Source: a virus
Taxonomy: Duplodnaviria; Heunggongvirae; Uroviricota; Caudoviricetes
IMG/VR virus record: IMGVR_UViG_2799113057_000001
Reading direction: 5' to 3' (one strand)
Length of the DNA: 64,000 bases
Numbering within the stretch: position 1 is the stretch's first letter; each line of letters starts with the position of its first letter. Of the stretch, positions 3,972-41,127 are shown one piece after another. Under the pieces are notes generated by a model. It saw only the letters and a program-made list of their open reading frames with translations, was not told the origin of the DNA and made no database searches. Position numbers and translations under genes: made by a program.

Positions 3972-5768
3972 TTGCCACCCTCCCCACGCATCGAGACCGG
4001 CCGCCAGGCCGGCTGTCTTGGCGAAGAAGGAGTTGCGGTGGCCGGGAATTCTGCCGATGGCCGACAGGCCGAGGGGCCCAAGCGTGCACGCAATCGCACC
4101 GACACAGCAGTGCCCTGGTATGTGACGACCGGTCGCCAGATCAAAGGGTACAAGCGTGAACTCAATCGCATCGACGAAGCACTGTCACGTCAGGATGTGC
4201 GCGGTGTCGGCTCGCCCCTGACTCGTCTGCGGGGGTCGCTGTCAGTGAGCCTCGTGGGCGGCGTGCTTGTTCTCGTGGCAGCCTTCATCGTCTCGCTGAT
4301 CAACCCCAAGCCCGATTCGGGCGTCGCCGCGATCATGACAACTCGTTCCGGCGGCATCTTCGTTCAGTTCAACGGCCGGCTGCACCCAGTAACCAACCTG
4401 GCTTCGGCACGCCTGATCGTCGGCAAGCCGGAGGAAGCCAAAGTGGCCACCGACGCAGCGCTGCGTTCGCTGCCCACCGGCCCGCTCATGGGTATCCCCA
4501 GCGCGCCGAATCTGTTGTCGCCCCGGACTGATGAAACAGCGGTGTGGACCGTGTGCGACTGGCGCGACACCGCTGTACCGCTCTCGCTGCTCAAGACCGG
4601 CGACATCACCACAGCTGTGATTGCCGGAGACGACATGCTCGATGGTGGAACTGATCTGGGAAGCACCCGCGCGGTGTTGGTTAAACCCGCTGGTGACCCG
4701 ACGCGTTTGTGGCTGCTGTATCGGGACACTCGGGCAGAAGTCGGTCGCGGCGACTACGCCGCCCAGGCCGCTCTGGGCCTGACACCATCGCTGATCGAAT
4801 CCGCAGTGACCGTCTCTCCCTCGCTACTCGCCACGATCGCTCCCTCGCCGGTGCTCACCGCGCCAAGGCTCATCAACCAGGGCCAGCCCAGCCCGACAGT
4901 GAACGGTTCAGCGATCGGCGATGTGCTGACAGTGACAACCGCCTCAGGGGCGCGGGCCTTTTACCTGGTCGGGTCTGGGGGAGTACAGCAAGTCAGTCCT
5001 GTTCTCGCGCAGATGATGATCAACACGGGAGCCGCGCAGAAGCTCGTCGACGACCCGGCCTCCGTGCAGGCGATGCCGCGGATCGCAATCGTGGACGATT
5101 CACGTTTCCCCGCTCAGGTGCCGACGCTGGTCAGTGAGCCCGCCCTGTGCTGGAGCTGGACCAAGACCGTCGGTGAACTCACAGCTCATACCCGGATTTT
5201 CACCAATTCGCGTATGCCAGTTACCGAGTCGGGCCGGGTGGCGGCAGTACACCTACTGCCGAACAACGGAACCACTGATCAGGCGACCGATTCAATCACC
5301 CGTCCCGGTTACGGCTGGTACGCGCGCATCACCGGCGACAGCACCGATTCAGTTGCAGCGGAGCAACTGCTGTGGATCGACCCCAACGGAACCCGATTCC
5401 CCATCGATGTAGTAATCGCGCGCAACGGCGGAGTCTCGTATGACCCAACCGTCAAAGCGCTGGGATTCGATTCGATTTCGCCGACACCGATTCCGGCGGC
5501 TGTTGCCAAGCTCTATGCCCCTGGCGCGACCTTGTCGATCAAGAACGCCCAAGTCATGCAAGGAACCATCAACCCCTCATCCCAGGTTCCGAATCCGCCT
5601 TCTACGCAGGGGCAACCGCCGCCGCCCCTGCCTTCCGAAGAAGAAGCGCAAGAACCCTCGTCCCCACAACAACCGGGCTCGCCCACCGCTGATCCCGCGG
5701 CCAATGCAAGCGGTGAGACCGCCACGCCTGTGCCCGCCGTCAACGATCCCTCAACTGCCGGTCGCTGA
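3972..5768 (+). CDS. eccB: EccB-like type VII (ESX) secretion membrane protein; true start probably downstream of 3972
   Basis: Single N-terminal TM helix. Blocks GRLHPVTNLASARLIVG and PALCWSW match EccB conserved regions. Pro-rich C-terminal tail. Confidence 0.75.
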   Translation: MPPSPRIETGRQAGCLGEEGVAVAGNSADGRQAEGPKRARNRTDTAVPWYVTTGRQIKGYKRELNRIDEALSRQDVRGVGSPLTRLRGSLSVSLVGGVLVLVAAFIVSLINPKPDSGVAAIMTTRSGGIFVQFNGRLHPVTNLASARLIVGKPEEAKVATDAALRSLPTGPLMGIPSAPNLLSPRTDETAVWTVCDWRDTAVPLSLLKTGDITTAVIAGDDMLDGGTDLGSTRAVLVKPAGDPTRLWLLYRDTRAEVGRGDYAAQAALGLTPSLIESAVTVSPSLLATIAPSPVLTAPRLINQGQPSPTVNGSAIGDVLTVTTASGARAFYLVGSGGVQQVSPVLAQMMINTGAAQKLVDDPASVQAMPRIAIVDDSRFPAQVPTLVSEPALCWSWTKTVGELTAHTRIFTNSRMPVTESGRVAAVHLLPNNGTTDQATDSITRPGYGWYARITGDSTDSVAAEQLLWIDPNGTRFPIDVVIARNGGVSYDPTVKALGFDSISPTPIPAAVAKLYAPGATLSIKNAQVMQGTINPSSQVPNPPSTQGQPPPPLPSEEEAQEPSSPQQPGSPTADPAANASGETATPVPAVNDPSTAGR

Positions 5769-10934: not shown

Positions 10935-11708
10935 TCAGCAGGCGCCGTAGAACTGCTGCATGGTGGCTTTCTCGGCAGCCGTCACTGTCAGCCGGTACTT
11001 GTTCTTCACCATCACTTGGCGCTTGACGTACGTGCAGTCGAAAGCTGTGTTCTCCGGCAGCCACTGATCGGCCGATTTCTCGCCCTTGCTCTCGTTTGAA
11101 GATCCGTTGACGGCAAGCAGATTCAGTGGATCGTTCGCGATCTTCTTGAGTTCGGACAAGTCCCAGGTCGCTGCGCCGGAGACCCAAACGTTCGCCAAAC
11201 TCACCAGATGATCGATCTGTACCAGTGCGGATGTCTTCTTGCCGTAGACGAATGAAATGACCTGTCCGGTGTACGGGTCGGCAAGTGTTCCGGACATGAC
11301 TTTGCATGAGCCGGAAAGGGTTATGCCGGTGAGGTCGCGCTGCAAAATATCGTCCCGGGTACTGCAGCCGTTGTGCCCACCTTCGATGTCGACGTCATCT
11401 GTCCACGGTTGTCCGAATCGTGCTCGGGCGTATCCATTTTTGGATCCGGGCGCAGCGACGGTCAGTGTCGATGGATCAGGACTGGGAGTTCCGGTACCGC
11501 TTATCGTCGATGCGCTCGGTGGCGCTCCTTCATCGCGTTGTTCCTGGCCGGTGATTTTGCTGAGCTCCGACGATATCCGGTTGTCCTTGCCGAACAAGGT
11601 GCCGTTCACGATCAGCACCACAATGACCGCCACGGCGGCCAGCGCGAATAGCTGTAGGAGCTGACTCAGCAGCTTGTCGTTTTCGGGTGGAGATTTCAGC
11701 GAGCTCAT
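10935..11708 (-). CDS. membrane-anchored DUF1524/GmrSD-C-like HNH nuclease
   Basis: N-terminal TM anchor. Motifs GHNGCSTRDDILQRDL and QIDHLVSLANVW match the DUF1524 HNH-like family. Confidence 0.55.
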   Translation of the reverse strand: MSSLKSPPENDKLLSQLLQLFALAAVAVIVVLIVNGTLFGKDNRISSELSKITGQEQRDEGAPPSASTISGTGTPSPDPSTLTVAAPGSKNGYARARFGQPWTDDVDIEGGHNGCSTRDDILQRDLTGITLSGSCKVMSGTLADPYTGQVISFVYGKKTSALVQIDHLVSLANVWVSGAATWDLSELKKIANDPLNLLAVNGSSNESKGEKSADQWLPENTAFDCTYVKRQVMVKNKYRLTVTAAEKATMQQFYGAC

Positions 11709-12326
11709 GGTGGCGCAGTGTGCGGCGGAACCCGGAAACGGATCGCACGCGACACGACAGTGGCCGCGTCGCTATCCATGTCATGTCCCCGATTCATGGT
11801 CTTCGTGCGCCGGGCCGCAGCCGGGAGGTTTCGTATCGTCGCATTGAGCACGCAGCTGAGCGATGTAAAGACGGGGCGGACATCTGAGCGGCGCCCCTGC
11901 AGAAACGCGAAACTCCTTTCAGCCGTGCCGGTTTAGTGCGTATCGCAACATTGACTGCGTCTTTGATCCAGGTTTTGACAGGGCTTCTGAGCGAAGCGCT
12001 GATCGACTAGCTGAGCGCAGGTGTGAGCGTGACATTGAGCGAATCCGGGGAAGCGCCAGTTTGTGCGTACGCACGCGCGTTGGAGACACATACAACGCCC
12101 GAATCCGTACTGGATCTGACGTGCTGTTGAAACTGTCAGTGCGGGCGATTGATAGAGGCACATTGAGCGATGCGTGATCGCGGATGTGCTCTCGGTCATT
12201 TTCCGAGGACGCGCCGCTGTGTGGCTCGCCGGTCGATCAGTCCTAGATTGCGGCTCGCTTCATCACTGGCCAGTACATCGTGTGGATCTCCAGGCGCTGT
12301 TCGATCAAGGGAAAGGGCGACGGGAC

Positions 12327-13118
12327 ATGACCGTTGTTATCGACAACCAGCTTTTCGTTCAAGGGCTCTCGGCGGCCAAGGTAATGGCGTACGCAGGCAA
12401 CGATGACCCCACGCATGCCGCCGTCGTACTGGGCTCCACGCGAGTCGAGACCGGCGAAGTCGGGACGCAGAACAGTTTGGCGTTCATCTCCTCGGACGGG
12501 AACAGTCCGGGGCAGGCGATCTTCGGCTGTGACGGAACGCTGCCTCTGGTGAAGTTCTCGACCGATCAGGCTTCCCAGTTGCTGTCGGCAGCCAAGAATG
12601 CGGCGTCGGCCGTCAAGAAGGTCGACAAGGAATCCCAGTGTGATGTCGAGTTGTCGGTCGTCGACAACGGCTCCACGCTACTCATGCGCACACTCACCGA
12701 CGGAGCCCCGGGAGAAGCCGACTCGCGGCACTACATCCCGTTGCAAGACGTCGACGACTTCCCGATCGCATCGACGATCTCTCGACTGTCGGCCCGCGGC
12801 GCCAAGGAAATTCTGAGCACGCGCGGTCTTGGTGACGACCAGACGACGGCACCGCTGAAGGTCGGCAAGGTTCAGGCGTTCGGCTCGGACGTGATCAAGA
12901 AGATGAGCGCCATCGCCGCGGTGTTCAAGGAACCTGTCGAGCTTTACACCCGTGAGCATCCCGCATCGATCGTCACGCTCACATGCGCCGGCGTCTTTCG
13001 AGCCGTGCTGTCGGCACACACCTACCACCCGGATCTGGACGTTGATGATCCGGAAGTGCCCGTCGCCGTTTCGCTCGGAGGAGACGAGGATGACGACGAG
13101 GGCCACGATGCCGCATGA
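12327..13118 (+). CDS. hypothetical protein
   Basis: Internal ATG with the upstream purine-rich stretch GGGAAAGGGCGACGGG. Acidic C-terminal tail. Confidence 0.45.
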   Translation: MTVVIDNQLFVQGLSAAKVMAYAGNDDPTHAAVVLGSTRVETGEVGTQNSLAFISSDGNSPGQAIFGCDGTLPLVKFSTDQASQLLSAAKNAASAVKKVDKESQCDVELSVVDNGSTLLMRTLTDGAPGEADSRHYIPLQDVDDFPIASTISRLSARGAKEILSTRGLGDDQTTAPLKVGKVQAFGSDVIKKMSAIAAVFKEPVELYTREHPASIVTLTCAGVFRAVLSAHTYHPDLDVDDPEVPVAVSLGGDEDDDEGHDAA

Positions 13119-13164
13119 TCAGGGTTGAATGTGTCGTCACGCCCCCAGGTCGAAGGAGGATCAG

Positions 13165-13611
13165 GTGAGCTTCACTGTTGAGACCGGCGACCTGTTCGTC
13201 CACCCCGCGGAGGCACTAGCTCATGGAGTGAACTGCCAAGGTGTCGCGGGGGCGGGTGTGGCCGCGATCATGAAACAGCGCTATCCAAACGCGATCTATC
13301 AGTACGAGGTGATCGCGCGGCGCGGCGACCTGCCGGCGGGCGGCGCCATGATCTGCTCCGGTGGCCCGGGCGACCGACCCATCATCCACTGCGCCAGCCA
13401 GTACTACCCAGGCCCCGACGCCCGCGAGGAGTGGGTGCGATCGTCGGTGGCCGTGGGCCTGAGTCTCGCCGTCGAGCACGGGATCGGTTCTGTCGCGCTC
13501 CCACTGATCGGCGGTGGTATCGGCGGACTCGATCCAGCAGTGGCCGAGCAGATTATTCGGGAAGTCGCAGAGGCTTCGCCGGTCGCTGTGACGCTGGTTC
13601 TGTTCGGCTGA
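13165..13611 (+). CDS. Macro domain protein (ADP-ribose binding/processing)
   Basis: Motifs HGVNCQGVAGAGVAAI, IHCASQYYPG and ALPLIGGGIGGL. GTG start after the RBS GAAGGAGGA. Confidence 0.75.
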   Translation: MSFTVETGDLFVHPAEALAHGVNCQGVAGAGVAAIMKQRYPNAIYQYEVIARRGDLPAGGAMICSGGPGDRPIIHCASQYYPGPDAREEWVRSSVAVGLSLAVEHGIGSVALPLIGGGIGGLDPAVAEQIIREVAEASPVAVTLVLFG

Positions 13612-13620
13612 ACACCTGAG

Positions 13621-13663
13621 CCCTACACCACTTACGTACAAAATGTACGAAAGTGGTGTAGGG
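13621..13663. other. Perfect 13-bp stem hairpin with a palindromic loop, 8 nt upstream of the next start codon
   Basis: CCCTACACCACTT-(ACGTACAAAATGTACGA)-AAGTGGTGTAGGG. Confidence 0.45.
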
Positions 13664-13671
13664 TCTCTGGT

Positions 13672-14559
13672 ATGACGAACGACTACGAGTTCTTCGCCTA
13701 TGACGGGGGACAGCTCACAGCAGCTGCGATAGAGATATTCGCCTACCCGATGGGTGATCTGACGGTGCGCTCCGTCGATGGGGCAGATCTCGTCCCGGGT
13801 GTGCAGGTGCTCTGGGTGCACACCGCGGCGCCGGACTGGACCGTCGTGTTCAACTGGGCAGCTCTGACAGCGGCGTACCCGCACCGAATCTTGGTGATGC
13901 CGTTCCTGCCCAGCGCCCGCGGCGACAAAGACACGCCCTGCCCGGCGCACACCAACGCGCGCTTGGCCGCGCTATCAGGAATCACCGGCATCATCACCAT
14001 CGACCCGCACTCGCCGGTGTGGCTGGACACGCTGCGCGCGGTCAACCCCACGGTCGCAGTACATGTCATCGACATGTCCGACGTGGTGGCTGCGGCGGTT
14101 GACGCTGGCGACTACCTCGGGGTGATCGGTCCGGATGCCGGCTCGCTGCGGCGCGCGAGCACAGTCGCCGCGCAGCTAGAGCTGCCGGTGTCGGTGGCCG
14201 ACAAGAAGCGCGATCGCGCCACCGGACAACTTCTGGGCTACAACGCCCCCGCTGAGGTGAAGGATCGACCGGGCCGGTACTTGGTGGTCGATGACATCTG
14301 CGACGGCGGTGGAACGTTCGCGCTGCTGGCTCAGGGGCTGGGTGCCGGCTTCGAGCTTGATCTGTGGATCACCCACGGCGGGTTCACCAAGGGCACCGAC
14401 GTCTTGATTGACAACTACCGGAGCATCCACACCACCGACTCGTTGCGCTCGGCAGTAGCGGCCGCTGTGACATCACCTGAGGGCGCGGCGGTACAGATCC
14501 ACCCACTTGGCCGCTACGTGCTCGACGGCCTGCACAACATCAGCGAGGAACCGAAATGA
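13672..14559 (+). CDS. Ribose-phosphate pyrophosphokinase (Prs)-like enzyme; candidate ADP-ribose pyrophosphokinase (Adps-like)
   Basis: PRPP-binding motif [13 protein letters not shown] and a Prs-like [10 protein letters not shown] region. Confidence 0.75.
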
Positions 14560-14966
14560 CTCAGAATTTTTCTGCCATCGAATGGCCGACCAACGGCACT
14601 CTGCTTGAGCGACAAGCCATCTTCATCTATGAGGCCGCGCGGCTACAGGCCGCCGCAGTGAACGCACCCGTCGTACCGGAGCCATGGTCGGCGCGCGAGG
14701 AGCATTTCCGGGCGCAGTTCCTGGAAATCACCGAGAAGATGATGGGCCCCGACCGGTATACGACGCCTGAACAGGCCCACGACAGCTGGTGGCGCGCGTA
14801 CGAGCAGTTGGGGTGGACATACGGCCCCGTGCGCGATGTAGCCGCGATGACACATCCGGACATGGTCCCGTTCAACGAACTCGGCTGGGAAGAACGTGTG
14901 AAAGACGCCGTGTGGATCGCGCTATGCGAGATCGCCCGTCAATGGATCGCGGAGGACGAGCGATGA
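14556..14966 (+). CDS. RyR (ryanodine-receptor) domain protein
   Basis: Matches the RyR domain core (GWTYGPVRD...[18 protein letters not shown]). ATGA coupling on both sides. Confidence 0.55.
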
Positions 14967-16537
14967 ACACACAGGCCACGACTGCCGACAACACCAACAC
15001 CCCGGGGGAACCGATGAAGGACAATCAGAACCGTGCGCTGGACACTCTGCTAGCCACCGATGCCTACAAGCTCGACCACCGGCGCCAGTACCCGGACGGC
15101 ACCGAGTTCGTGTACTCCAACCTCACCGCGCGCGGCACGCGGGTGCCAGGTATTAATGCGACGGTGTTCTTCGGTCTGCAGGCATATCTGCAGCGGCTGA
15201 TCGAAGACTGGCAGGTGTTCTTCGACCTGTCCGCCGACGAACTCGAACCGGTGCTGGCCGGATATGAGCGGTTTGTTACCGCGCTTTTGGGACCGAACAC
15301 GGTTGGCGTTCAGCACTTCCGCGACCTACACACGTTGGGCTACCTGCCACTGCGTGTGCGGGCGGTGCGGGAAGGATCGCTAGTACCTTTGCGGGTTCCG
15401 TATCTAACCGTGGAGAACACCGATCCCCGGTTCTTCTGGCTGACCAACTACTTCGAGACGCAGTTGTCGGCTGAGCTGTGGCAGCCGATCACCAGTGCCA
15501 CCATCGCCTGGAACAACCGCAAGCTGCTCGACGAGCGCGCTGCTGAGTCTGGCGATGAAGCCGCGGTGCAGTTCCAGGGCCATGACTTCTCCTACCGGGG
15601 CATGGCTGGAGACGCAGCGGCGGCCGCATCAGGTGCGGGCCACCTGATCAGCTTCACGGGCACCGACGGATTGCCCGCGATCCGGTTCATCGAACGGTTC
15701 TATCCCGGCAACGGCGACGCCTTGATCGGCGCATCAGTTCCGGCGACCGAGCACTCGGTGATGTGCGCCGGCGGACAAGACGGCGAGCTGGCGACCTTTG
15801 ATCGGCTGCTGAGCCTGTATCCCGAAGGAATCCTGTCGGTCGTTTCGGACACCTGGGATCTGTGGCGCGTACTCACCGAGTACCTGCCCGCGCGCAAGGA
15901 ACAGATCATAGCCCGCGACGGAAAGCTGGTGATCCGCCCCGACAGTGGCGATCCCGAGTTGATCCTGTGCGGAGATCCAGCTGCGCCCGAAGGCAGTCCG
16001 GCTCGCAAGGGCGTGGTGAATCTGCTGGCCGAGACGTTCGGCACCATCACCAACGCCAAGGGCTACCGCGAACTGAACCCGCATGTCGGTGCGATCTATG
16101 GGGACTCGATCACCTTTGAGCGAGCCGACGCGATCACACGGAACCTGATGGCGCAGGGGTACGCCTCCACCGCTGTGGTTTTCGGGTTCGGTTCCTACAC
16201 CTACCAGTACCAAACACGCGACGTTTTCAAGCTGGCCGTCAAGGCGACATGGGTTCAGATCGACGGTGTCGGCCGGGACATCCTCAAAGACCCGGTCACC
16301 GATGACGGATCTAAGAAGTCGGCTACCGGACGATTGGCGGTGCGACGCGCGATGAGTGGCGAGCCGTACTTGATCGAGCATGCCGATGCCGATCAGGAAG
16401 CCGACAACGAATTGAAGCTGGTGTTCGAGGACGGAAAGCTGTTGCGGCAATACAGCTTCACCGAAGTGCGCGAAACGTTGACCCGTGAGACCGGTGTCTA
16501 TCAGCGTTACAGCCGCGCGAGGAGGCAGCAGTCATGA
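14963..16537 (+). CDS. Nicotinamide phosphoribosyltransferase-like enzyme (NAMPT/NadV/Namat family)
   Basis: N-terminal [16 protein letters not shown] matches the NAMPT signature. About 524 aa. Confidence 0.85.
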
Positions 16538-17187
16538 GATCGATGACCGAATCGAACCTGGCCGTGAGCCCCGACGATCATCCGGTGCACGGTACTTGGC
16601 TCAGCGTGGATGTCGTTGCCCTCACCGATGACCCCGAGCCGAAGATCGTGTTGATCGAACGCGCCGGTGCACCGCACAAAGGCGAAATCACCTTGCCTGG
16701 TGGGCTGCTGGCCGCCTGGGAGGGGGAGACCGTCGAGCAGTGCGCGCAGCGCATCGTGCGGAACAAAGCCGGCACTGAGTTGACCGGCGGCATCGCTGTC
16801 GTCGACGTCGTCAGCGACCCGGGGCGCGACGAACGCGGGCACACCGTATCGATCGTCGTGGTGGCCCGTGTCCCCGCTGAGGTCAGGGGCGCTGTGCCAG
16901 TGACCCAGATACCGGAGGCAATGCCATTCGGCCACACGGGGATCGCAAGGTCGGCCATCTTACGCCTGGGGGAGCGCCTGCTGGTCGACCCGGACACCAC
17001 ACACGCCATGCTCGGCGACGAGACCACACTCGCCCAAGTTCGCGCGTTGCTCGGTGTCTGCGGCCCGACAACCGCGGGCGCAGCCCGCAAGCGCCTGGAC
17101 CGCTCACCGCTATACCGCCGAACCGAGGAGCTGCGTAAGCCAGCGCCAACCGGCCGGCCAGGGCACGTATACCGATTCCTGGTGTAG
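16534..17187 (+). CDS. NUDIX hydrolase
   Basis: Nudix box GX5EX7REUXEEXGU (LPGGLLAAWEGETVEQCAQRIVRNKAGTEL). Confidence 0.8.
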   Translation: MRSMTESNLAVSPDDHPVHGTWLSVDVVALTDDPEPKIVLIERAGAPHKGEITLPGGLLAAWEGETVEQCAQRIVRNKAGTELTGGIAVVDVVSDPGRDERGHTVSIVVVARVPAEVRGAVPVTQIPEAMPFGHTGIARSAILRLGERLLVDPDTTHAMLGDETTLAQVRALLGVCGPTTAGAARKRLDRSPLYRRTEELRKPAPTGRPGHVYRFLV

Positions 17188-27072: not shown

Positions 27073-28026
27073 CTATCGAGCGGCGGCATTGTCGGAAACT
27101 GCTGTCGAGTCCCTCGCGCGCTCTTCGGCGCGCTGCAGCAGGCGCCAGATTCGGCCGGCGTAGGCGTCCTTGGTGATCGGTGGATCGGCTTTGGCTGCAA
27201 GCTCGTTCATTCGGGCTTCCGGGTTCTCCAGGCGTAGTCGCGCCGCCTCGGCCAGCTGTGGTGGCACGTCATCGCCGAGGATTCGGAGCGCACGCCCCAC
27301 CGATTCGGCTTGGTCGTGTGCCGCCTGGATGAACCTGGATCTGTTGGCAGCCTCGAGGTTCTCGACGCGCATCGATTCGCGGTGCGTGCTAATGAGGGTG
27401 TGCGCAGCTTCGGGTGCTCCCACGGCTATGAGGAATCTGCCTATCTCCGGGGTCTTGCGAATCTCGAATACGTCGACAGATACTCCGTCGCGGGTGTATT
27501 CGCGCATCTGACTCTGTACTCCGTGGCGGCGGGCGAACCCACCGAGTGCCATCGCCGCAGGGGCAGTCGGGCACACAACCTCGAGGCGCGGTCGTCGGAG
27601 CTCGTGGGTGATGATCTGTCCGCGTGCCAAGAACGCACCGCGAAGTGCGGCTGCCGCGTCAGCGCGTGTGCCTGCCACGACCGCCGGCGACATACCCAGT
27701 ACCGGCCGGCCCGATGGGCTTAGCAGGCCCACCTGCGCCGCTAGGTTGTGGGCGCGATGTATCTGGCGCACCTTGAAGGTTCCCGCCGATAGCTCGAACG
27801 CGCGCGGCGCCGCGTCGAAGAGCTTGGTGATCTCGTCGCGCAAGAACACCGCGGCTTCGCGCGTATCGAGCTCGACGTCGATCCAGCAGCGGCGGCCCTC
27901 GCTGAAAAACCCGCCGCCGAAGCGCAGCATCGCTGAGACCTGCGCACGTCTGGTCGAAGGCGTGTCGTTGACGGACGGAAGTACACGATTCAGTTCGTAT
28001 TTGACCTGTTGTGTCAGTGGATTCAC
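27073..28026 (-). CDS. whiA: WhiA-like DNA-binding protein (divergent paralog 1)
   Basis: C-terminal PPITKDAYAGRIWRLL and overall WhiA-like layout. Confidence 0.7.
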   Translation of the reverse strand: MNPLTQQVKYELNRVLPSVNDTPSTRRAQVSAMLRFGGGFFSEGRRCWIDVELDTREAAVFLRDEITKLFDAAPRAFELSAGTFKVRQIHRAHNLAAQVGLLSPSGRPVLGMSPAVVAGTRADAAAALRGAFLARGQIITHELRRPRLEVVCPTAPAAMALGGFARRHGVQSQMREYTRDGVSVDVFEIRKTPEIGRFLIAVGAPEAAHTLISTHRESMRVENLEAANRSRFIQAAHDQAESVGRALRILGDDVPPQLAEAARLRLENPEARMNELAAKADPPITKDAYAGRIWRLLQRAEERARDSTAVSDNAAAR

Positions 28027-29925: not shown

Positions 29926-30957
29926 TTACGCACCTGCCAGGAGTCGGACGGCCCCACCGTCGGGGCGCTCTGAATCGAACTCGTCCTGCTCTTCTCCGGC
30001 GGCGCGGCGGTCGGCCATGATGAGCAACCGCCGCAACCGGCCTGCGACAGCGTCTTTGGTGATGGGCGGCTGGGCGAGCTGCCCAAGCTCTTCCAGAGAT
30101 GCCTCGCGGTGATCCAGGCGAAGCTGTCCGGTGTGCACCAGGTGCTCGGGTGCTTCTGCCCCCAAAATCGCTAGTGCCTGCTTCACCTTGGCCGCCGTGG
30201 CTGCCGCTGCTCGTGCTGATCTACGCGCGTTGGCGTCATCGAGGTTGACCAGCCGGATTGCGGTCGACTGCATTGCGCGCTGAGCGATTCGCCTCTCCCA
30301 GGAGATGCGCGACTCGTCTGCACCGATTCGGGTCAAGAGCGTTCCGATGCTGTCATGGTCGTGAATCACGACACGGTCGATGCCACGAGCCGTGCGCACC
30401 ATCGACTGAACACCCAGCCGGCGCGCGCAGCTGGTCAGCGCGAATGCCACTTCGGGGTTGGGGCAGCTGATCTCCAGCGCGCTGGATCGGCTCGGTCCGA
30501 TCAATGATCCAGCGACCATGAAGGCGCCGCGCCAGGCTGCGGCGACCTCGCCCGGTGATCCGCCGACCACCATCGCGGGTAGCCCGGTGACGGGCCGGCC
30601 GCGCAGGTCGATGAGACCAGTCTGTAGGGCGAGATCACGCCCACCTTCGCTCACGCGCACCGTGTAACGGGCACCACGGCGCAATCCGGTTTCGCTGTTC
30701 ACGATCACTACTGCTTTGTGGCCATACAGCGCTGCGATTTCCCGGCGCAGGTACCGCGCGACGGCACCGGTGCCGACCTCGATGTGCACCGTCAGCCCGG
30801 TACGGGAGACACGAAGCTCACCAGCGAGTCGGACGATAGCTGCGACCTGAACACGCCTGCACCCCTGGTGTATTGATGTGGCGCGACTCAACTCGTCACG
30901 CACTTCCTGCGTCATCGACATCGGTCCTCCTCCTGCGTTTCGTGGTCGGTCTGTCAA
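29926..30957 (-). CDS. whiA: WhiA-like DNA-binding protein (paralog 2, closer to canonical WhiA)
   Basis: LAGLIDADG-derived N-terminal region plus the C-terminal HTH motif PPITKDAVAGRLRRLL. Confidence 0.8.
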   Translation of the reverse strand: MTDRPRNAGGGPMSMTQEVRDELSRATSIHQGCRRVQVAAIVRLAGELRVSRTGLTVHIEVGTGAVARYLRREIAALYGHKAVVIVNSETGLRRGARYTVRVSEGGRDLALQTGLIDLRGRPVTGLPAMVVGGSPGEVAAAWRGAFMVAGSLIGPSRSSALEISCPNPEVAFALTSCARRLGVQSMVRTARGIDRVVIHDHDSIGTLLTRIGADESRISWERRIAQRAMQSTAIRLVNLDDANARRSARAAAATAAKVKQALAILGAEAPEHLVHTGQLRLDHREASLEELGQLAQPPITKDAVAGRLRRLLIMADRRAAGEEQDEFDSERPDGGAVRLLAGA

Positions 30958-32927
30958 GCTGCGGTTTCAACGGCGCCGGGGCGCTGGAAGGCCGGGAGCC
31001 ACTTCTCGGCTTGGGCAAGTGCGATCAGGTCGCTGAGGTCACGGCGGTCGAGCTGGCCGGCGTCGGGGACTCCCAATTGCGACGCGAAGTCGATCTGCGC
31101 ATCGGAGGACTTAGCGCGGGGGAGATCACGCATGTGATCGGGAAAGATATTCTGCGCCAGCGCGTCTGCCTCTGCCAGGCTCAGCCCTTGCAGGTAGCAC
31201 CTGGGGCCCGGTTCGGTCCACTGCCCATCGAGGCCGACCCAGAACATGCGGTGCACCGTGCTGTCGAAGAATCCGAAGGCCCAATCACGGCCCGCGACGG
31301 TCCCCGTGACACCACGCATATCGGCGAGCATCAGTACGCCTTTGTGGCCGTTGGCGCGGTACACCGAGCGCACGAGGCCGCGGGGGTGGTGTACCCAGCG
31401 GATGGTGGAGGTGCGCTGCGACCAGCTGGAGTCGCCTCGCCGCTGTTTTCCGGCGGCTAGGACGTCGCCGGTAACCGGATCGAAAGTCCGCAGCGGATCT
31501 ACTCGGTGCAGGTCGCATTCACAACCGCAACGGCAGAGTCCGAAGGTCAGCGTGCATGTGCATGTGCAGGGGACACTGGACACGGGGTCGCTGGCTGGGC
31601 CTGACTCAGACGACTCGTTCGCACACGTGCAGTTGCATTCACAACCTATTCCCGTGCAGGAGAAGTCGCACTCGTCACTTGTGCAGGGCTGCTGGCAGAA
31701 GCAACCGAACCCGTCTTCGTCGCTCTCCGGTTTCTCGCGGTGTTCGGGGTCCAGGCGGGTCTTGACGATCAGCCCGAGAGATCCGGCGCCCACGAGGTCC
31801 ACGACGAGAGCGGTGTCTTTGACGGTTCCGTCTTCGAAGGTGTGTGGCCGGAGAGCGCGCCCTACACATTGGACAAGCCTGGACTGGCTGCGCGTCGGTC
31901 TGGCCAGCACGACCGCTTCGCAGCGAGGGAAGTCTGCTCCCTCAGTGAGCACGTCGACCGTCACCAGCACCTGGGTGCTCCCGTGTCGGAATCGGTTGTA
32001 AATGCCGTTACGGACGCGGGTTTTGGTCTCTCCGACGACCACTTCGGCGGACACGCCTTGTTCGACAAGGGACTTGGCTAGTTGCTCGCAGTGCAACAAC
32101 GAAGCGCCAAAGACGATGGACGAGCGGCCCTCGGTGCGTGTCAACACCGCCTCGACAGTGGCGTTTAGCGTGGTCTCTCGCATCATCGCCTCTTCGGCGA
32201 CCTCGTCGGAGATGTCTCCGCCACTACCGGAGGACAGCTTCGAGACATCAAGTTCCGGGAGTTCAACGGTCACGCCTTCTGGCGCGATCAAGAAGCCGTT
32301 TTCGATGGCCCAGTTGATGTCCCGCTCGAAAACCACCTCTTCCCAGATGGTCCTCAAGGCGGGCTCGTCCCTGCTCGGGGCGTGGCGGATCATCGTCGCG
32401 GTGAATCCGGCACGGCGCGCGCCCAGAGCAGTGAAGTGGTCGAGCACCTTGCGGTAGGTTCGGGCGGGCGCGTGGTGGGCCTCGTCGACGATGACGAGGT
32501 CGCGGTGTCCGATTCTGGCTAGGGCCGCCTCAGTCTGTAGTGATTGCACTGTGGCCGAGACAATCTGAGCAGTTGGGTCATCGCGATTGCCTCCTCCGAT
32601 CAGCGAGGGGACGGGGCCGGCCGGGTTCACCGCTGAGACGGCAATGGCCATCTGCTTGATCAATTCGTCGCGGTGGGCCATCAGCAGCACCCGGCCGCTG
32701 TTGGTCACCTCACGGCGCGCCAGCTCTGCGATGACGGTCGATTTTCCCGTCCCGGTCGGCAGCACGACCGCCGGTCCCACGACGCCACGGTTGTAGGCAG
32801 CGCATACCGCGTCGGCGGCTTCGATCTGATACTCGCGCAGTGCACGTGGCTCGTTGGTTGCAGGGGCTGCGACAGGGAAAGCCATCTGCTCTTGATCTGC
32901 GGCGGGAGCCAAGTCGGTGACTGTCAT
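30954..32927 (-). CDS. SF2 DEAD/DEAH-box helicase with a Cys-rich insertion
   Basis: Walker A LPTGTGKS, Walker B DEAHH. A roughly 90-aa block holds more than 20 Cys residues in CxC arrays. Confidence 0.8.
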   Translation of the reverse strand: MTVTDLAPAADQEQMAFPVAAPATNEPRALREYQIEAADAVCAAYNRGVVGPAVVLPTGTGKSTVIAELARREVTNSGRVLLMAHRDELIKQMAIAVSAVNPAGPVPSLIGGGNRDDPTAQIVSATVQSLQTEAALARIGHRDLVIVDEAHHAPARTYRKVLDHFTALGARRAGFTATMIRHAPSRDEPALRTIWEEVVFERDINWAIENGFLIAPEGVTVELPELDVSKLSSGSGGDISDEVAEEAMMRETTLNATVEAVLTRTEGRSSIVFGASLLHCEQLAKSLVEQGVSAEVVVGETKTRVRNGIYNRFRHGSTQVLVTVDVLTEGADFPRCEAVVLARPTRSQSRLVQCVGRALRPHTFEDGTVKDTALVVDLVGAGSLGLIVKTRLDPEHREKPESDEDGFGCFCQQPCTSDECDFSCTGIGCECNCTCANESSESGPASDPVSSVPCTCTCTLTFGLCRCGCECDLHRVDPLRTFDPVTGDVLAAGKQRRGDSSWSQRTSTIRWVHHPRGLVRSVYRANGHKGVLMLADMRGVTGTVAGRDWAFGFFDSTVHRMFWVGLDGQWTEPGPRCYLQGLSLAEADALAQNIFPDHMRDLPRAKSSDAQIDFASQLGVPDAGQLDRRDLSDLIALAQAEKWLPAFQRPGAVETAA

Positions 32928-33694
32928 GCAGCGCCTCGCTGTTCGGCGATCGCGGCGCCGAGCGTGAGAACGAAGTCACCGCCAGTGACGTACAGCCCGT
33001 CAGCTGCGGCCACCGTGATTCCGCGGCAAGCCTGATCGGGAACCTGCTCGAACGAAACGATTTCGCGGCGTAGTTCGTCGTCGCGCCCCCACAACGGCAC
33101 GAGGCTGTATCCGGCTCCGTGCCGAACCCATGTGGGCAGTCCGCCAAGCGAACGGATCAGAGAGCCGGCGGCGGCCAGCGCCATGGAGGGAGCCGACGCC
33201 CCGATGCTGGACCGCGTGCCCAGTACACCGGCGAGCGTTTCGCGCCGCTGTGAGACGTCCGCGGTGAGGTACCGCCAAAGAAGGCCTGCGTCAGTAGCCT
33301 CGCCGCTGCGCAGTTCGGACCCGAAGGTTAGGGGGTCGACCGGGAGAGCAGCGGCCTCCGGGAACGCAACGGCTGCCGCAGTCGGGATCGTCCAACGCGG
33401 TGCACCTCCCGGCAGCACCAGATTGGCGCAGATATCAGCGGTGCGATAGATGCCGATCGCGCCGGTGGCGCCGTCACGAGCCTGCCACAGAGTTTCCGCG
33501 GCTACGTCGGTCTTGGCGCCGTCATCGAAATGCAGACGCGCCATCGAAACGGATCCGATGTCGTTGACGGCAAGAACCGGTATCGGGGTTCCATCGGAAC
33601 CAAACACCGTGTCGCCGGGGACGAGATCGTCCAGCCGACGGAATCCGTCAGGGGTCGGTATCGCCGTGTCGAGCGGCTGTGCGTGAGTGTTCAC
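32924..33694 (-). CDS. stand-alone Hint-domain (intein/BIL-like) protein
   Basis: N-terminal IPTPDGFRRLDDLVPGDTVFGSDGTPIPVL resembles Hint block A/B. ATGA coupling to the helicase. Confidence 0.45.
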   Translation of the reverse strand: MNTHAQPLDTAIPTPDGFRRLDDLVPGDTVFGSDGTPIPVLAVNDIGSVSMARLHFDDGAKTDVAAETLWQARDGATGAIGIYRTADICANLVLPGGAPRWTIPTAAAVAFPEAAALPVDPLTFGSELRSGEATDAGLLWRYLTADVSQRRETLAGVLGTRSSIGASAPSMALAAAGSLIRSLGGLPTWVRHGAGYSLVPLWGRDDELRREIVSFEQVPDQACRGITVAAADGLYVTGGDFVLTLGAAIAEQRGAA

Positions 33695-35689: not shown

Positions 35690-36139
35690 TCAGGTGTAGC
35701 TGAGGTTCAGCGTTGGCGCGGCGACGGAGACCAGCTCGGCGTACACATCGGGGTAGCGCTCCTCGAACAGGTCGTACTTGACCGAGCGCGCCCCTGCCTT
35801 CTGAGTGACCGTGAATCCGTCGTAGACGCCAGGGGTGTTGGCCACGGCGGTGAGCAGCGCAACACGGACCGCCTTCAAGGCCTTCGCGCATCGGCTGTTG
35901 ACGGAGCTCAGAATCTGGCCCTGTCGCGTCGCCGTGGCTGCCCGCATGGACACCTGCAGGACCAGGTGTGCGAGTTCGGCAGCGGGGTCAGCCGACGCCT
36001 CGATGAACGCCACGATTTCGTCTGTCGACAGAGTCGATGTGGCACCTGTCGGGGCAGGCGCTTGTGGTGCGAGCAGGCCCGCGGGGGCAACCCCGTGTAA
36101 AGGCGGAGCCGTGGGTACTAACGGCGGTGAAGCGGTCAT
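35690..36139 (-). CDS. hypothetical protein
   Basis: Internal Met with RBS GAGGAGA. 149 aa. Confidence 0.4.
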   Translation of the reverse strand: MTASPPLVPTAPPLHGVAPAGLLAPQAPAPTGATSTLSTDEIVAFIEASADPAAELAHLVLQVSMRAATATRQGQILSSVNSRCAKALKAVRVALLTAVANTPGVYDGFTVTQKAGARSVKYDLFEERYPDVYAELVSVAAPTLNLSYT

Positions 36140-36674
36140 GAGTGCGGTCTCCTCGAAGTGGTCGGTCCGAGTGACGAGGATGTCCGGCATCCGGAGGAGA
36201 TGAATCGAATTTGCGAATCATCCACGTTTCCATCACCGGCAATTGCCGTCGTCTCGGTGAGCGTAATGCCGGTTGTGATGCCTACGCAACACCTGTTCTG
36301 TTTCTGCGTGTCGTTGTACGCCTGGGGTCTGACAAGTGGGCACTATCCCGCCCTCAGCCTGGGGAAATGTGCGGGGAAGTCAGTGGGGAGTGAATGGGCG
36401 GGCGCGTGGCTAGTTGCCGGTTGTTGCCTGTCACGTCCCCCCAGGGCATTGCGCGAAAGTAAGTTTCGGCAGGTTGGTCGACGGGTTCCCGTCAAACTCG
36501 CGCCAGGCCTCCAACTATGTCTGGCTACCCGGCATCGACTCACAGCCCGCCCGCCAGCCCCGGCTCTCCGCCGGTTGGCGTGATTCTGTTCGTCGTGGTG
36601 TGTAACTTTCCCTGTTGACCTGCGGTTTCTGCCAACAGGGCGTGCACTTGTTGGCCTACCTGCGTGTTTGTGTT

Positions 36675-36885
36675 GATGCCTTGTAAGTGGGGGGTGCCTC
36701 GGAGACCCCCTCGGCGTGCACATGTACACACACTTTCTGACCGGCTTTGCCTCACGTAACGGGTAAAACAAATAATTAGCTAAACTAATTACATATATCT
36801 ACCTGGGGTTTCTTTATAGGCCTACCGTGTGGGCAATTTTATGAAGTCAGAGCCGCGCCGAGGCACCCCCCATCTACAAGGCATC
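36675..36885. repeat. 28-bp inverted repeat (2 mismatches) flanking a 155-bp spacer with a strongly AT-rich core; candidate origin
   Basis: Left arm 36675..36702 and right arm 36858..36885. AT-rich tract at about 36764..36800. Sits inside a 1-kb non-coding gap immediately upstream of the DNA polymerase gene. Confidence 0.5.
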
Positions 36886-37165
36886 TGCGTAAAACTGCTG
36901 GTAGGCCGAGAAGTGCGCGCCATTTTGACCATTTACGCAGTTCAACGCGGCGAGAAACCGTGCACACCGAACGATTCGCGCCGCGAAAAGGTGTGCACAT
37001 CGCAGAGGCGGAAATGTGCAGCAGTGGCGAGCGGGGGCTGGTGTCGGCGAGATCAGCATTGGCGATATTTCGATGTAGAGATCAGGCGAATGGGCAATAT
37101 GCCTATTTCGATGCCACCTATCGGCGTGTCGGCAACTAGATGGCAATGATGTCGGCATCGAATGC

Positions 37166-39961
37166 TTGACTGGCCGCGTGTCCGATGAGCCCAACGTGCC
37201 AGTGGTCGATCTGCCGCGTGTCAACGCGGTCGAGTTCCAGTTCTATGACCACACGGTCGGGGCGCATCTAGTTACCGCTGACAAACAGATGGCGAGGTGG
37301 ATCGACGAGCTTCGGTCGGCACCGCCAGCCGCAGTGGCCGTCGACATCGAGACCCATGGTCTTGACGTCAACAAGTTCACCATCACGTGTGTCACCGTGG
37401 CCTTCGAACTCGGTCAAGACATGGTGGCGCTGTTGTTCGATCCTCTGCGCCGCGCTGAACACCGCGGGATGCTGGCCCGGGTCTTCGACCACGCGGACCG
37501 CCTGGTCTTCCACGGCGCCAGCTTCGACATCGCCCCGCTGTACGCCCACAGGCTCATGACGAAGGCGCATATTCGCAAGCTCGGCGACACGCTGGTCGCC
37601 GCGCGGATGGTGGGGACCAACGCCAAGGCCGGCCGCACGCTCGAAGACCTCGCGAACGTGTTCCGCGTGATGGACGACGATCGCACGTCGATGACCGAAG
37701 TGTTCTCCGCTCGAGGACTTAAGAAGGACGACGGTTGGCGGGGAACTGATATCGACACTCCGACCTATGTAGTGGGTGCGTTGTCCGACACCGTCGCGAC
37801 AAAGCGCCTTTGGGGTGTCCCGGGCGTTAACGGACACGGCATCATGGCCAAGGCCGCTCGCTACCTGACGGCCCCGTCAGCGGGTTTCGGCGGCCATGGT
37901 GTTCTCACAGCCACTGACGCTGAAGCACTCGTCGAGGACATCCAGCGCGTCAACGCGATAGTGCTGGAACGGACGGCACGCGGATACGCGGTCGACAAAG
38001 AGTTCCCCCAGCGTTTCCTTGAAGAGACTGCTGAGCAGACGCGGGCTGCCGCAACGACTCTCGCTGAGGCGGGAATCCGCCCGGGCAATGCCGCTGACCT
38101 GGTCAACACCCTCGATGCCCGCGGTCTGCTGCACCAGCAATGGCCGCGTACCGACACAGGCCGCCTGAAAGCCGATAAGAAGGCATTGGAGGTCTTCACC
38201 GGCGAGCACATCAGTGACGCGCTGAAGAACCCGCTGGTGATGGCGCACCGTGCTGTTTTCGACAACGAGAAGGACCGCGGCTATGTCGAGAAGGTGGTCG
38301 AAAATGCAGGGCCCACAGGGCGCCTACATCCAGAAATCAAGATTTTGGGCGCCAGCGCCACCGGCCGCATGTGCCTGCCCGAGAATCAGCGGCTGCTGAC
38401 CCGCCGGGGCATCGTGTCTGTGAACGAGATCCGGACCGGCGATCGAACCCTGGATGCAGACGGGCGCTGGACGACGGTGCTGGAGGTGCACCGATACAGC
38501 GATGCGCCGCTTCGCCGTTACACACTCGATGACGGAATCGAACTGATTTGCACACCCGAGCACCGCTGGGTTACCGAGAACACCGCCGGTAAACGCAAGG
38601 TTCAGTCTCTTGACCGTGCCCGGCAATCCGACCATCTGCGTCTCACGCCGCCTATTACTCCCGGGGTCTGCGGAGGCGGGAACTCCATGACCGCTCCGCA
38701 GCACGACGCGTACACCATCGGGCGTGTCACTGTTCAGCTTGCGCGACAACGCACCGGCGAGTTGTCCGATGCTCTATGCGGTCCAGCCGAGACGCGGCGC
38801 GCGACGGTGACTAGCCTGCGTGAGCGCTGGCAGACCGAAGGTGAAACCTGCTGGGTACCCGAGCATGCGCCACGAGACACCGCGCTGCACTCGGTGTGCG
38901 ACAAGTCTCTCGATGAGCTTTGGAACATGCTGGAGGGTGCGAGCCACTACGCGACAAACGCCAGTCACGCTGGTGTCACCGTGCTGCCTACACCCAATAG
39001 GCGCTACGCCGAGGCTTTCGCGCTGGCGGGATATCGCCTCGGTCTGCGATCCCTGATCTTTGACGCACCCGCAGGGGCTGCCGTCGTGCTACATCGAGGG
39101 CGCTCCGGCCTGGCCAACATGGTTGTGAGTGATGCCGGAGAAGGCGATGTGTGGTGTGTGACAACTGATTCGGGCACATTCACCGCATGGGGCGAACATG
39201 GCCCGTACCTGACGGGCAACAGTGCGAGCAAGCCGGAGATTCAACAGTTTCCCAAACGGGCACGAGGAGTCATCGTCGCTGATTCAGACGCCGAGGGCTG
39301 GATTTCGGCGGACTGGAAATCGATCGAACCCGTGGTGCTGGCGACTGCGTCCGGAGACAGGCAGTTCATCGCCGACATGCGCGCCGGCATGGATCCGTAC
39401 GAGCCGGTGGGGCAAGCGGCCGGTATTGATCGCAAGCTTGCCAAGCGAAAGATGCTTGCGGATATGTACGGGCAGGGACTCAAAGCCGCTTCGCTGCAAT
39501 ACGGTTGGTCACTGGATCAAGCTCGGTTCGTTCAGAACACGATCCGCGGATCGCTGCCGATTCTGTACAAGCTGATCGACGCACTCAAGGCGCAGTCGCA
39601 ACGATTCGGGCACGTGACCACGCTTACCGGCAGGGTGGTCGATCAGAAATTCAGCTTCTACGAGGGTGGACGTCTGGTGAGCGATGTGGCACAACGCATT
39701 GCGCCCAACCACTTCTGCCAAGGCTCGGCGCTGGACATCATGCACTACGCGATTCTCGAATTGGATCGCCGCGGGCTATCTGATCACGTCCATCTGTGGA
39801 TGCACGACGAGATCGTGGCGGACAAGGAGATTGCCGAGGAACTGGCCGAAGTCATGGCCACGCCGCCCCCGTTCCTGGAAGCGGTGGCGCAGTACCACGG
39901 TATCGAGGCGTTCTTGGCCGTCGACGTGAACGAGATGGGCAGCCGATGGGAGTACGTGTGA
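37166..39961 (+). CDS. polA: Family-A DNA polymerase (PolA-like, 3'-5' exo + polymerase) interrupted by an intein
   Basis: Exo motifs (VDIETHGL). Pol motifs B ([14 protein letters not shown]) and C (LWMHDEIV). Confidence 0.85.
38372..39220 (+). other. Intein (283 aa) within the polA-like gene
   Basis: The host motif [15 protein letters not shown] (cf. TGRLSSSDPNLQNIP) is split by the insert. Insert begins with Cys ([15 protein letters not shown]) and ends LTGN, with a TxxH block (TPEHRW) and C-terminal blocks. Confidence 0.7.
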
Positions 39962-40236: not shown

Positions 40237-40349
40237 GTGGCAGCTACACACTCGCCATCAGCTGGAGTGACGAAGATACGCCTGGACTTCCGCGCTATAT
40301 CGAACCCGTCCCCTCCAATCAGCAGGGAGACAATGATGCTCGGATCTGA
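40233..40349 (+). CDS. 38-aa micro-ORF
   Basis: Strong RBS (GGGGGAGGAGACATC). Confidence 0.3.
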
Positions 40350-41127
40350 CCCGATCGCAGCGCTACTCGGCGCCGGGCTCGACGCGCGTTCACCGCAGGT
40401 GGTGTGGAAGGGATACCTGCGCAAGCTCGCAGCCGCGGGTTGCGCAGTGACCATGCTCGGTCCGGACGTCGTAGTTCCCGACGGTCTTGATGCCGAAACT
40501 CTCACTGTGCTGGCGGAACTGACTCAGCGCTTCCCTTCGCAGGCCGCGATGCCGGAGGAGTCCACCGGCAAGCTCTCCGGACAAGGCCAGGTGGACAGAA
40601 CTGGCGATCAGATCAACGCACGTGTGACCACCTACTACCGGCACATCACCAAAATCGTTGGAGCTCAGCGCGCGCCAGCCTTGCTTGATGCTGGAGTGAT
40701 TACGCCAAGCGCCGGGATCTACATACCGTTTTCTCATATGGTCGCCGTCGCCGTTCCCGACGCGACCGCGCTGGCGCAATGGCGTAGGTGGGCAGCCGAG
40801 ACAAGCGGTGACCGCTTCGAGCTTCACACCGCGCCAACGCTACTGGTGCCCGGGCTGCCCGGTGGTGGTGTGTACCTGTTCACCACACCGGACACCGGTG
40901 CTGATCACCAGCACCCCGCCGCCATCGGATACACACCGGTTACCGGACTGAACTTCGCGGTCGGGGACAGCATCGTCAGCGCCGGCCAGGTGACGGTGCC
41001 GATCCCTCCTACGCGGATGGGCGGAGCGCCGGTGATGCGCCTGGGCCCATGCCGGAAGCTGCCAGCCTGGCTGGACGCAGCACTTCGGGAACACGGCTCC
41101 CAGAGCGTGCCGCTGTCGGCCGCGTGA
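40333..41127 (+). CDS. hypothetical protein
   Basis: ATG with RBS AGGGAGA. 264 aa. Confidence 0.5.
   Translation: MMLGSDPIAALLGAGLDARSPQVVWKGYLRKLAAAGCAVTMLGPDVVVPDGLDAETLTVLAELTQRFPSQAAMPEESTGKLSGQGQVDRTGDQINARVTTYYRHITKIVGAQRAPALLDAGVITPSAGIYIPFSHMVAVAVPDATALAQWRRWAAETSGDRFELHTAPTLLVPGLPGGGVYLFTTPDTGADHQHPAAIGYTPVTGLNFAVGDSIVSAGQVTVPIPPTRMGGAPVMRLGPCRKLPAWLDAALREHGSQSVPLSAA

Follow-up and report, generated by a model that had tools for sequence, protein, structure and literature searches.

The 64,000-nucleotide stretch of IMG/VR record IMGVR_UViG_2799113057_000001 (at its full length "the window" in what follows) comes from a large mobile element of Mycobacteriales and not from a classical phage. 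Between two of its operons, which point away from each other, lies a noncoding gap of 1026 bp, and in this gap lies an imperfect palindrome of about 370 bp, the subject of this study. An earlier note had described the gap as about 1 kb of noncoding DNA with a 28-bp inverted repeat around an AT-rich core, and had proposed that it is a replication origin or, alternatively, an oriT (origin of transfer) or packaging site. The gap is indeed noncoding: the open reading frames (ORFs) in it are not conserved as protein in relatives, and no tRNA was found in it. On its left edge a gene for a 149-aa protein starts leftward with an ATG at 36139, and on its right edge the gene of a family-A DNA polymerase starts with a TTG at 37166 (in other assemblies with a GTG at 37178).

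The placement beside replication genes also stands, since the gap falls inside a replication-gene cluster. After the 149-aa gene, the leftward operon encodes an E3_binding-domain protein, two unknown proteins of 265 and 256 aa (the latter a P-loop ATPase), an SF2 helicase and WhiA-like proteins. The note's switch between divergent gene blocks is real locally, at the gap, but does not extend far, because the genes run leftward again at 41.2 kb. The GC content, given there as roughly 66%, is about 62% in the window.

Results

A long palindrome around the most easily melted DNA

Our results confirm the 28-bp inverted repeat, with two mismatches and a 155-bp spacer (Table 1). It occurs exactly twice in the 64 kb when up to three mismatches are allowed, and none of 100 shuffles contained two matches. 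The repeat is an inner segment of a much longer palindrome. Its arms lengthen to 89 nt with a complementarity of 74%, and on both strands the segment 36590-36970 gives a single hairpin of about 370 nt (z = -9.7 for the + strand and -9.1 for the - strand).

The sharply AT-rich center of the spacer is likewise as described. The 40 nt from 36763 to 36802 have a GC content of 20%, compared with a window mean of 62.1% (sd 7.1%), and the core has the lowest GC content within the 64 kb at scales of 40, 60 and 100 nt. The center of the palindrome is the most easily melted DNA of the window. A mini-hairpin, TAATTAG-CTAAA-CTAATTA (36773-36791), occupies the exact center of symmetry, and a one-sided box, ATTAGC-N5-TAATTACATA-N3-CTACCTG, overlaps it at 36775-36805. 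The gap also contains GTGCACA four times (0.15 expected) and GGCCTACC three times.

Contigs from seven independent short-read runs that carry the same 149-aa gene (L045-L051) stop at 36604-36627, the left edge of the palindrome. Hence, many isolates have the repeat and short-read assemblies break at it, so that reconstructions of plasmids or islands in these species can be expected to be fragmented at this point.

A family of six palindromes

The palindrome belongs to a family of six diverged copies: one in the window, one in a Mycobacterium (L017), one in a metagenome contig (L004) and three in Tsukamurella (L001, L023 and L052). Each copy sits in a noncoding gap of about 1 kb between divergent operons. 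Four of the gaps are the one upstream of the polymerase gene. The L052 copy belongs to the same Tsukamurella element as the L001 copy, and the L023 copy belongs to a different one, which encodes Prim-Pol, a type IV coupling protein, EccD and MycP.

All copies follow a shared plan, with an outer box TTGACCTGCG-N5-nGnCAAC, an inner box GGGGGGnnCCTC about 70 nt further inward and an asymmetric central box. When ten half-arms from five copies were aligned, the consensus was ttGACCTGCG-N5-nGnCAac for the outer box and GGGGGG(t/a/c)(g/c)CCTC for the inner box; the arms of L052 were matched later by a hidden Markov model (HMM) of the half-arm. The outer motif GACCTGCG...G.CA is kept in all ten half-arms of the five elements, and so are the inner box and its spacing of about 70 nt. 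The boxes are placed symmetrically around the AT-rich center. The segment between the arms measures 104-215 nt and contains an AT-rich mini-hairpin with TTAGC at its apex, together with the one-sided box.

In about 0.6 Mb of compared sequence the half-arm HMM matches these copies only, and always as inverted pairs; in the window it matches 36615-36702 (E = 1e-14) and 36945-36858 (E = 1e-17). In phage and plasmid collections searched by megablast and blastn, neither the gap nor the element had any match except the Tsukamurella copies. The pattern ATTAGC-N5-TAAWTACATA-N3-CTACC had zero matches in viral or metagenome contigs, and an initial genome scan with a two-sequence profile confirmed no copy. 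Rfam 15 covariance models gave no match at the window copy or at four other copies (E up to 1). The palindromes are a new family of cis-elements, with no Rfam family, no annotation and no similar sequence in the phage and plasmid collections, and the family is specific to mobile elements of the type VII / type IV secretion class in Mycobacteriales.

Pairing of the arms is maintained

In an alignment of the six elements, standard pairs fill 83.9% of the pair cells compared with 73.6% in shuffles, and none of 500 shuffles reaches the observed value. When the partners are slid against each other, pairing falls to 41-47%. Both sides have changed while pairing was kept in 29 of the 70 pairs, where 16 are expected. 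The complementarity of the arms also runs past the conserved boxes into sequence that is not conserved between elements. Hence, pairing itself has been maintained, and not merely a set of binding motifs.

To compare the strands we told them apart by the direction in which the central box reads, and the scoring used to align the arms favored neither strand. On the central-box strand, G.T mismatches outnumber A.C mismatches by 36 to 18 (p = 0.02), with the same direction in each of five elements, and the strand with the forward central box has the lower fold energy in four of the five. Both strands fold nearly equally in two elements. Three genomes (L042-L044) share 95.6-97.3% identity with the window. 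Seven of the arm differences among these four sequences leave a wobble or A.C pair, and six of them toggle between a Watson-Crick pair and G.T on the central-box strand, a count that is biased because the structure was derived from the window's own + strand. These observations hint, weakly to moderately, at a stage in which one strand works as a hairpin.

One could argue that such a hairpin is a transcript, and that the palindrome is the gene of a long structured RNA of about 370 nt, for example an RNase III substrate or a decoy. Compensatory changes, a wobble bias on one strand and an orientation that is free with respect to the neighbors, as in a self-contained gene, would all fit. It is very unlikely that this explains the family, for the following reasons. 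First, none of the five copies searched matches Rfam. Second, no conserved promoter or terminator flanks the element, and a scan for both stayed at chance level. Third, two of the elements show near-equal folding of both strands. Fourth, the strongest conservation lies in short boxes of the kind typical of DNA-binding sites.

Boxes of that kind could also be operators. The palindrome would then be a regulatory platform for divergent promoters, bound by a looping or wrapping repressor or by a nucleoid-type protein, and would possibly insulate the two operons. The copies always lie between divergent operons, their boxes are conserved and symmetric, the elements encode several WhiA-like and helix-turn-helix (HTH) proteins, and the core contains one match resembling a sigma-70 promoter (TTGCCT-18-AATAAT, 36747-36776). 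This single match is what chance would give (0.6 expected). Beside the leftward operon stands a block of conserved boxes that is probably its promoter/operator region, and a second block is probably the promoter/operator region of the polymerase gene. Both blocks persist in most closer relatives with or without the palindrome (L002, L004, L006, L017, L020, L022), so basic control is independent of it. They share GCGTGTCG, which occurs twice in the gap in the same orientation, and are probably sites of a regulator common to the two replication operons. GTGTC inside GCGTGTCG is the reverse complement of GACAC, which we take to be a WhiA target motif; GCGTGTCG is not enriched in the window (10 sites, with 8 expected) and is located in the flanking blocks, outside the palindrome. 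A regulatory platform would also leave unexplained both the complementarity of 100-nt arms outside the boxes and the strand bias. We therefore consider it quite unlikely.

Discussion

A candidate initiation site

Symmetric conserved boxes, a meltable center, arms that have kept their capacity to fold into a hairpin or cruciform, and a one-sided central box beside a mini-hairpin together make up the anatomy of an initiation site. Our best single reading is that the palindrome may be an exchangeable accessory, in the manner of one origin among several alternatives, and not the fixed core origin of the element family. More specifically, it may be a modular, hairpin-extruding initiation site for DNA replication, for transfer or for both. 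We hold this view tentatively, as something quite possible that falls short of probable.

Under this reading, initiation could proceed in four steps. A sequence-specific protein would bind both kinds of symmetric box, the outer (GACCTGCG-N5-nGnCA) and the inner (GGGGGGnnCCTC). The AT-rich center would then melt. Next, the arms would pair within each strand and form a hairpin or cruciform. This would expose the mini-hairpin and the adjacent one-sided box (...TACATATATCTACCTG), where priming or nicking could start.

An optional module, not a fixed origin

Many of our observations weigh against an initiation site at this position. The palindrome is missing at about 12 of 17 syntenic polymerase loci (about two thirds), where gaps of 244-690 bp hold small hairpins only. 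Hence, it cannot be required by this replication module. Its position also varies by lineage relative to a landmark that we call box A. In loci without the palindrome and in L004, box A precedes the polymerase start by 125-227 nt, and in L004 the palindrome is on the far side of the box. In the window and in L017, the palindrome is on the polymerase side of box A, which is 737 and 656 nt upstream of the polymerase, respectively. In the window and L017 the central box faces the polymerase gene; in L004 and L001 it faces the other way. One Tsukamurella element contains two mutually inverted copies 69 kb apart, and the L023 copy, in an element of the Prim-Pol type, is not near replication genes. 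Among the proteins of the window (64 kb of an element that extends further), neither an initiator nor a relaxase was recognized. The strand bias, in addition, is weakened when strand-neutral sets of consensus pairs are used (31:16 for their union, p = 0.04, and 6:6 for their intersection).

Strand composition points the same way. At an origin, GC skew would be expected to switch, and in the window it is positive on both sides of the gap. The same holds for both flanks of all four polymerase loci that bear a palindrome. Skew in the 93-kb region of the Tsukamurella element tracks the direction of the genes, and neither copy coincides with a minimum. In the window, G exceeds C on the + strand along the entire length; the skew of its genes averages +0.037, does not depend on gene strand and has a side-of-gap term of +0.011 +/- 0.006. 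This uniformity suggests that one strand has had a uniform history, for example through unidirectional replication or within a single replichore. The missing skew switch is an outcome that the earlier note had listed as refuting an origin. We give it only moderate weight, skew being a weak signal in these elements, because they spend time integrated and because unidirectional or strand-displacement replication gives no switch. A skew of the whole Tsukamurella "plasmid 13" was dropped from the analysis, because the record appears to be chromosomal.

The origin proposal of the earlier note thus survives in part. The anatomy and the replication-gene setting fit, but patchiness, variable placement and, with less weight, skew count against an origin fixed at this locus, and the comparative data rule out this simplest form of the idea. 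For a packaging site we find no support. Judged from the compared sequences, the palindrome is an optional, movable module.

A module that comes and goes might also be a selfish or decaying palindromic insertion without a role for its carrier, similar to a miniature inverted-repeat transposable element (MITE) or an enterobacterial repetitive intergenic consensus (ERIC) sequence, that spreads among co-resident mobile elements and lodges in intergenic DNA that tolerates it. Like these, our palindromes differ in presence at orthologous intergenic sites among close relatives and occur in variable positions and in either orientation. The three copies in the records of Tsukamurella tyrosinosolvens NCTC13231 have unrelated flanking genes, and their cores resemble each other more than they resemble the mycobacterial copies. 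We nevertheless think a selfish insertion unlikely. First, five of the six copies have no target-site duplication or sharp ends, and the sixth has a 3-bp match at chance level; the palindromes fade gradually and lack sharp terminal repeats. Second, the best-conserved boxes are internal, not terminal, and their spacing and the pairing have been kept across highly diverged copies. Third, unlike ERIC sequences and MITEs, the family has a very low copy number (at most three, and the copies in one genome are only about 70% alike) and is confined to one class of mobile element, with no further copy found by the arm HMM. Fourth, there is no evident partner transposase. More generally, no gene within 8 kb on either side tracks the presence of the palindrome.

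Variable orientation could alternatively result from an invertible promoter switch, in which a recombinase flips a promoter between inverted repeats. The 28-bp repeats do bracket an AT-rich segment of 155 bp, and both core orientations are found among distant relatives. We found no inversion polymorphism in the four genomes compared, however: the window and its three near-identical relatives are collinear and share one core orientation. There is also no recombinase gene nearby, the symmetry reaches far past simple recombination sites, and the position of the whole palindrome shifts between lineages, so that the differences are not simple flips. A promoter switch is therefore highly improbable.

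Comparison with known systems

Some of the same features are expected of a site that works as a single-strand hairpin, after DNA transfer or in lagging-strand synthesis, where one strand folds and is recognized by the RNA polymerase of the host or by a primase. Examples are the single-strand origins (sso) of plasmids, primosome assembly sites and the single-stranded promoters Frpo/ssi of conjugative plasmids. Like such sites, the palindromes are long imperfect noncoding hairpins of a few hundred nucleotides on transmissible elements, with a hint of folding on one strand and sometimes more than one copy; conjugative elements carry about two Frpo-like sequences each (PMC11541004). A single-strand site would account for copies upstream of operons and for the strand bias in wobble pairs and fold energy. 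It would also fit the TTAGC at the apex of the mini-hairpin in all copies, a motif that we take to resemble the loop motif TAGCGT in CS-6 of ssoA. The palindromes measure 370-470 nt, near the size of the Frpo of the F plasmid (Masai and Arai 1997, cited in PMC11541004), which is reportedly 328 nt. Unlike Frpo, the stem lacks a -35/-10 pair, as no TANNNT hexamer follows 17-18 nt 3' of the TTGACC box in any of ten arms, and there is no sequence similarity. A single-strand site should also keep one orientation, whereas orientation relative to the flanking genes and the G-rich strand agrees in only four of the six copies, and the two copies in one Tsukamurella element are inverted. No relaxase was recognized in the window and the carriers may lack one (cf. 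PMC12803027), so that a single-stranded transfer stage is at most putative. Overall, we regard a single-strand site as somewhat unlikely.

Returning to the palindrome as an initiation site, the closest functional analogy may be found in herpes simplex virus (HSV). Its origins oriL and oriS are palindromes with A+T centers and inverted binding boxes that lie between divergent genes (at oriL including the polymerase gene). They occur in several copies that are individually dispensable, and are activated through a hairpin in a strand-specific way, and the same genome encodes an SF2 helicase. We suggest an analogy and not membership. HSV origins are 45-144 bp long in total, whereas the arms here alone have about 100-190 nt and the core includes a large asymmetric part; the host is bacterial, and the analogy rests on the arrangement and not on homology to UL9 or its boxes.

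The palindromes also share features with iteron-type origins of plasmids and phages, which are noncoding, lie by replication genes and have an AT-rich center and repeated short boxes. Unlike at those origins, we recognized no Rep, DnaA box or initiator, there is one large palindrome instead of direct iterons, no skew switch is seen and the module is not conserved in relatives. Searches with Pfam and PHROGs found no Rep or initiator family among the genes neighboring the gap; the adjacent genes are replisome genes.

Transfer might start here as well. As at an oriT, a mini-hairpin is followed by a conserved one-sided box in AT-rich DNA between divergent operons, and ATATCTACCTG presumably resembles the nick region ATATCCTG of MOBP systems and T-DNA borders. 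Unlike in known oriTs, the flanking arms are much longer, no relaxase was found in the window and one element carries two copies. An oriT function is possible. We also considered a telomere junction, an idea based on the C-runs with which the arms begin. Linear replicons of the pCLP type end in poly-C followed by short GC-rich hairpins. The pCLP ends share only a C-run with the arms of our palindromes, so this idea was rejected. A center that resembles the XerCD dif site also seems improbable.

Giant linear mycobacterial plasmids with type VII secretion genes, one of which (pCBMA213_1) also carries a DNA polymerase, are probably related to the element of the window. No rep gene, initiator, relaxase or identified oriV has been reported for them (PMC12803027, PMC7478629). 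Hence, an unconventional origin is expected somewhere in such elements. The palindromes might be these missing origins, that is, AT-centered, hairpin-extruding and multicopy sites of actinobacterial mobile elements without recognizable Rep or relaxase, served by the elements' own polymerase, primase-polymerase and SF2 helicase. This wider proposition is doubtful, if still a real possibility. If true, it would give bacteria a counterpart of herpesvirus oriL and oriS that possibly doubles as the start point of DNA transfer. The carrier element is widespread, a candidate of 370 bp makes the question experimentally direct, and natural variants with and without the palindrome exist for comparison.

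The carrier element and its replication genes

The carrier is one of the mycobacterial mobile elements that make up the type VII / type IV secretion class. Besides the replication genes, the window encodes EccB and an EccC-like ATPase (type VII secretion), several FtsK/SpoIIIE-type ATPases and a lytic transglycosylase. The gene order of the replication cluster is kept in Tsukamurella, Mycolicibacterium, Mycobacterium and many metagenome contigs, and homologues of the 149-aa gene (124-151 aa) occupy the same position in all relatives. Identical copies of the 149-aa protein are recorded in 59 assembly blocks, among them a 5.3-Mb contig as well as contigs of 124 and 251 kb.

The 5.3-Mb contig and the Tsukamurella tyrosinosolvens NCTC13231 record "plasmid 13" (L039, NZ_LR134455.1) indicate that the carrier can be integrated in a chromosome. 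Given its housekeeping genes (cobalamin synthesis, lnt, rbpA, uvrA), the latter record looks like a mislabeled piece of chromosome with an integrated mobile element. The record "plasmid 8" (L040, NZ_LR134450.1) also looks mislabeled, a chromosomal status inferred from the naming of the records, as the mobile-element stretch alone was inspected.

The replication module is fuller than Pfam alone indicates, given the matches of two further proteins. A 296-aa protein encoded just 3' of the polymerase (40237-41127) matches the phage "DNA polymerase/primase" family phrog_906 (E = 1.4e-6), and the 256-aa P-loop ATPase (32924-33694) has weak matches to DnaC-like loaders and terminase ATPases.

Table 1. 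Positions of the palindrome, its parts, its other copies and neighboring features. Positions refer to the window, except for the five copies in other elements, which are numbered in their own sequences.
Feature	Position	Strand	Basis or context
Noncoding gap between divergent replication-gene operons	36140-37165	.	Homologous gap of 244-1026 bp in relatives
Whole imperfect palindrome, hairpin- or cruciform-capable (window copy)	36596-36968	.	Folds and palindromic signal exceeding background; polymerase gap
Left outer box TTGACCTGCGGTTTCTGCCAACA	36615-36637	+	Box conservation and half-arm HMM
Left 28-bp repeat copy GATGCCTTGTAAGTGGGGGGTGCCTCGG	36675-36702	+	Includes inner box GGGGGGTGCCTC at 36689-36700
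Asymmetric 155-bp core	36703-36857	+	AT-rich stretch 36762-36801, mini-hairpin, one-sided box
Right 28-bp repeat copy	36858-36885	-	
Right outer box, reverse complement TTGAACTGCGTAAATGGTCAA	36925-36945	-	Box conservation and half-arm HMM
Two direct copies of a 24-nt unit with GTGCACA	36946-36969 and 36979-37002	+	
L017 copy (Mycobacterium sp. D16Q14)	~4455-4835		Polymerase gap
L004 copy (metagenome)	7340-7722		Polymerase gap
L001 copy (Tsukamurella)	11436-11810		Polymerase gap
L052 copy	~9030-9445		Tsukamurella element of L001, 69 kb off; beside operon of an FtsK/SpoIIIE protein; inverted relative to L001 copy
L023 copy	6955-7432		Different Tsukamurella element; between gene of a protein with three HTH_17 domains and a secreted S1-protease-like gene
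Left conserved-box block: GCGAATCATCCAC (36213), TAATGCCGG (36264), GCGTGTCG (36306)	36213-36313	+	Alignment, box table
Landmark box A, TGTCACGTCC	36429-36438	+	
Right conserved-box block: GCGTGTCG (37124), ATGTCGGCA (37149)	37124-37157	+	Alignment, box table
Leftward 149-aa gene, first of leftward operon	35690-36139	-	ORF; GAGGAG ribosome-binding site upstream of ATG
Family-A DNA polymerase with 3'-5' exonuclease domain	37166-39961	+	Pfam; intein interruption (probable) 38372-39220
Macro domain protein	13129-13611		
Phosphoribosyltransferase	13672-14559		
NAMPT/NAPRTase-family protein	14789-16537		
NUDIX protein	16534-17187		

The polymerase gene is interrupted by an insertion of 283 aa (residues 403-685) that is probably an intein, judging from its ends and its similarity. 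Its first residue is Cys and its last two are Gly-Asn, followed by Ser. In the 641-aa Tsukamurella homologue the residues on either side of the insertion point are adjacent, and the insertion weakly matches the gp41-1 intein (PDB 6riz, E = 4.6e-5). Polymerase homologues in L017-L022 have a similar extra length, and the insertion is missing in L001, L002, L004 and L006. Like the neighboring genes, the intein does not track the presence of the palindrome.

The two WhiA-like proteins encoded at 27073-28026 and 29926-30957 are paralogues that combine a LAGLIDADG-like domain with an HTH domain; relatives have one to three of them.

About 6 kb from the second copy of the Tsukamurella element lies a full-length gene for transfer-messenger RNA (tmRNA; 94.6 bits, L052 15724-16150, about 260.2-260.7 kb of NZ_LR134455.1). 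It adjoins adenylosuccinate synthetase and NUDIX genes, and is either the integration site of the element or a tmRNA gene borne by it.

Two further regions of the window are of some interest. The genes at 12174-17187, which include those listed at the end of Table 1, form a cluster related to NAD and ADP-ribose and resemble an island for NAD salvage, possibly with an anti-defence role, carried by the mobile element. At 49034-52294 the window encodes a SNF2/ResIII helicase of 1086 aa with eight repeats of the helicase-associated (HA) domain, in whose place the Tsukamurella element has shorter HA-domain proteins.

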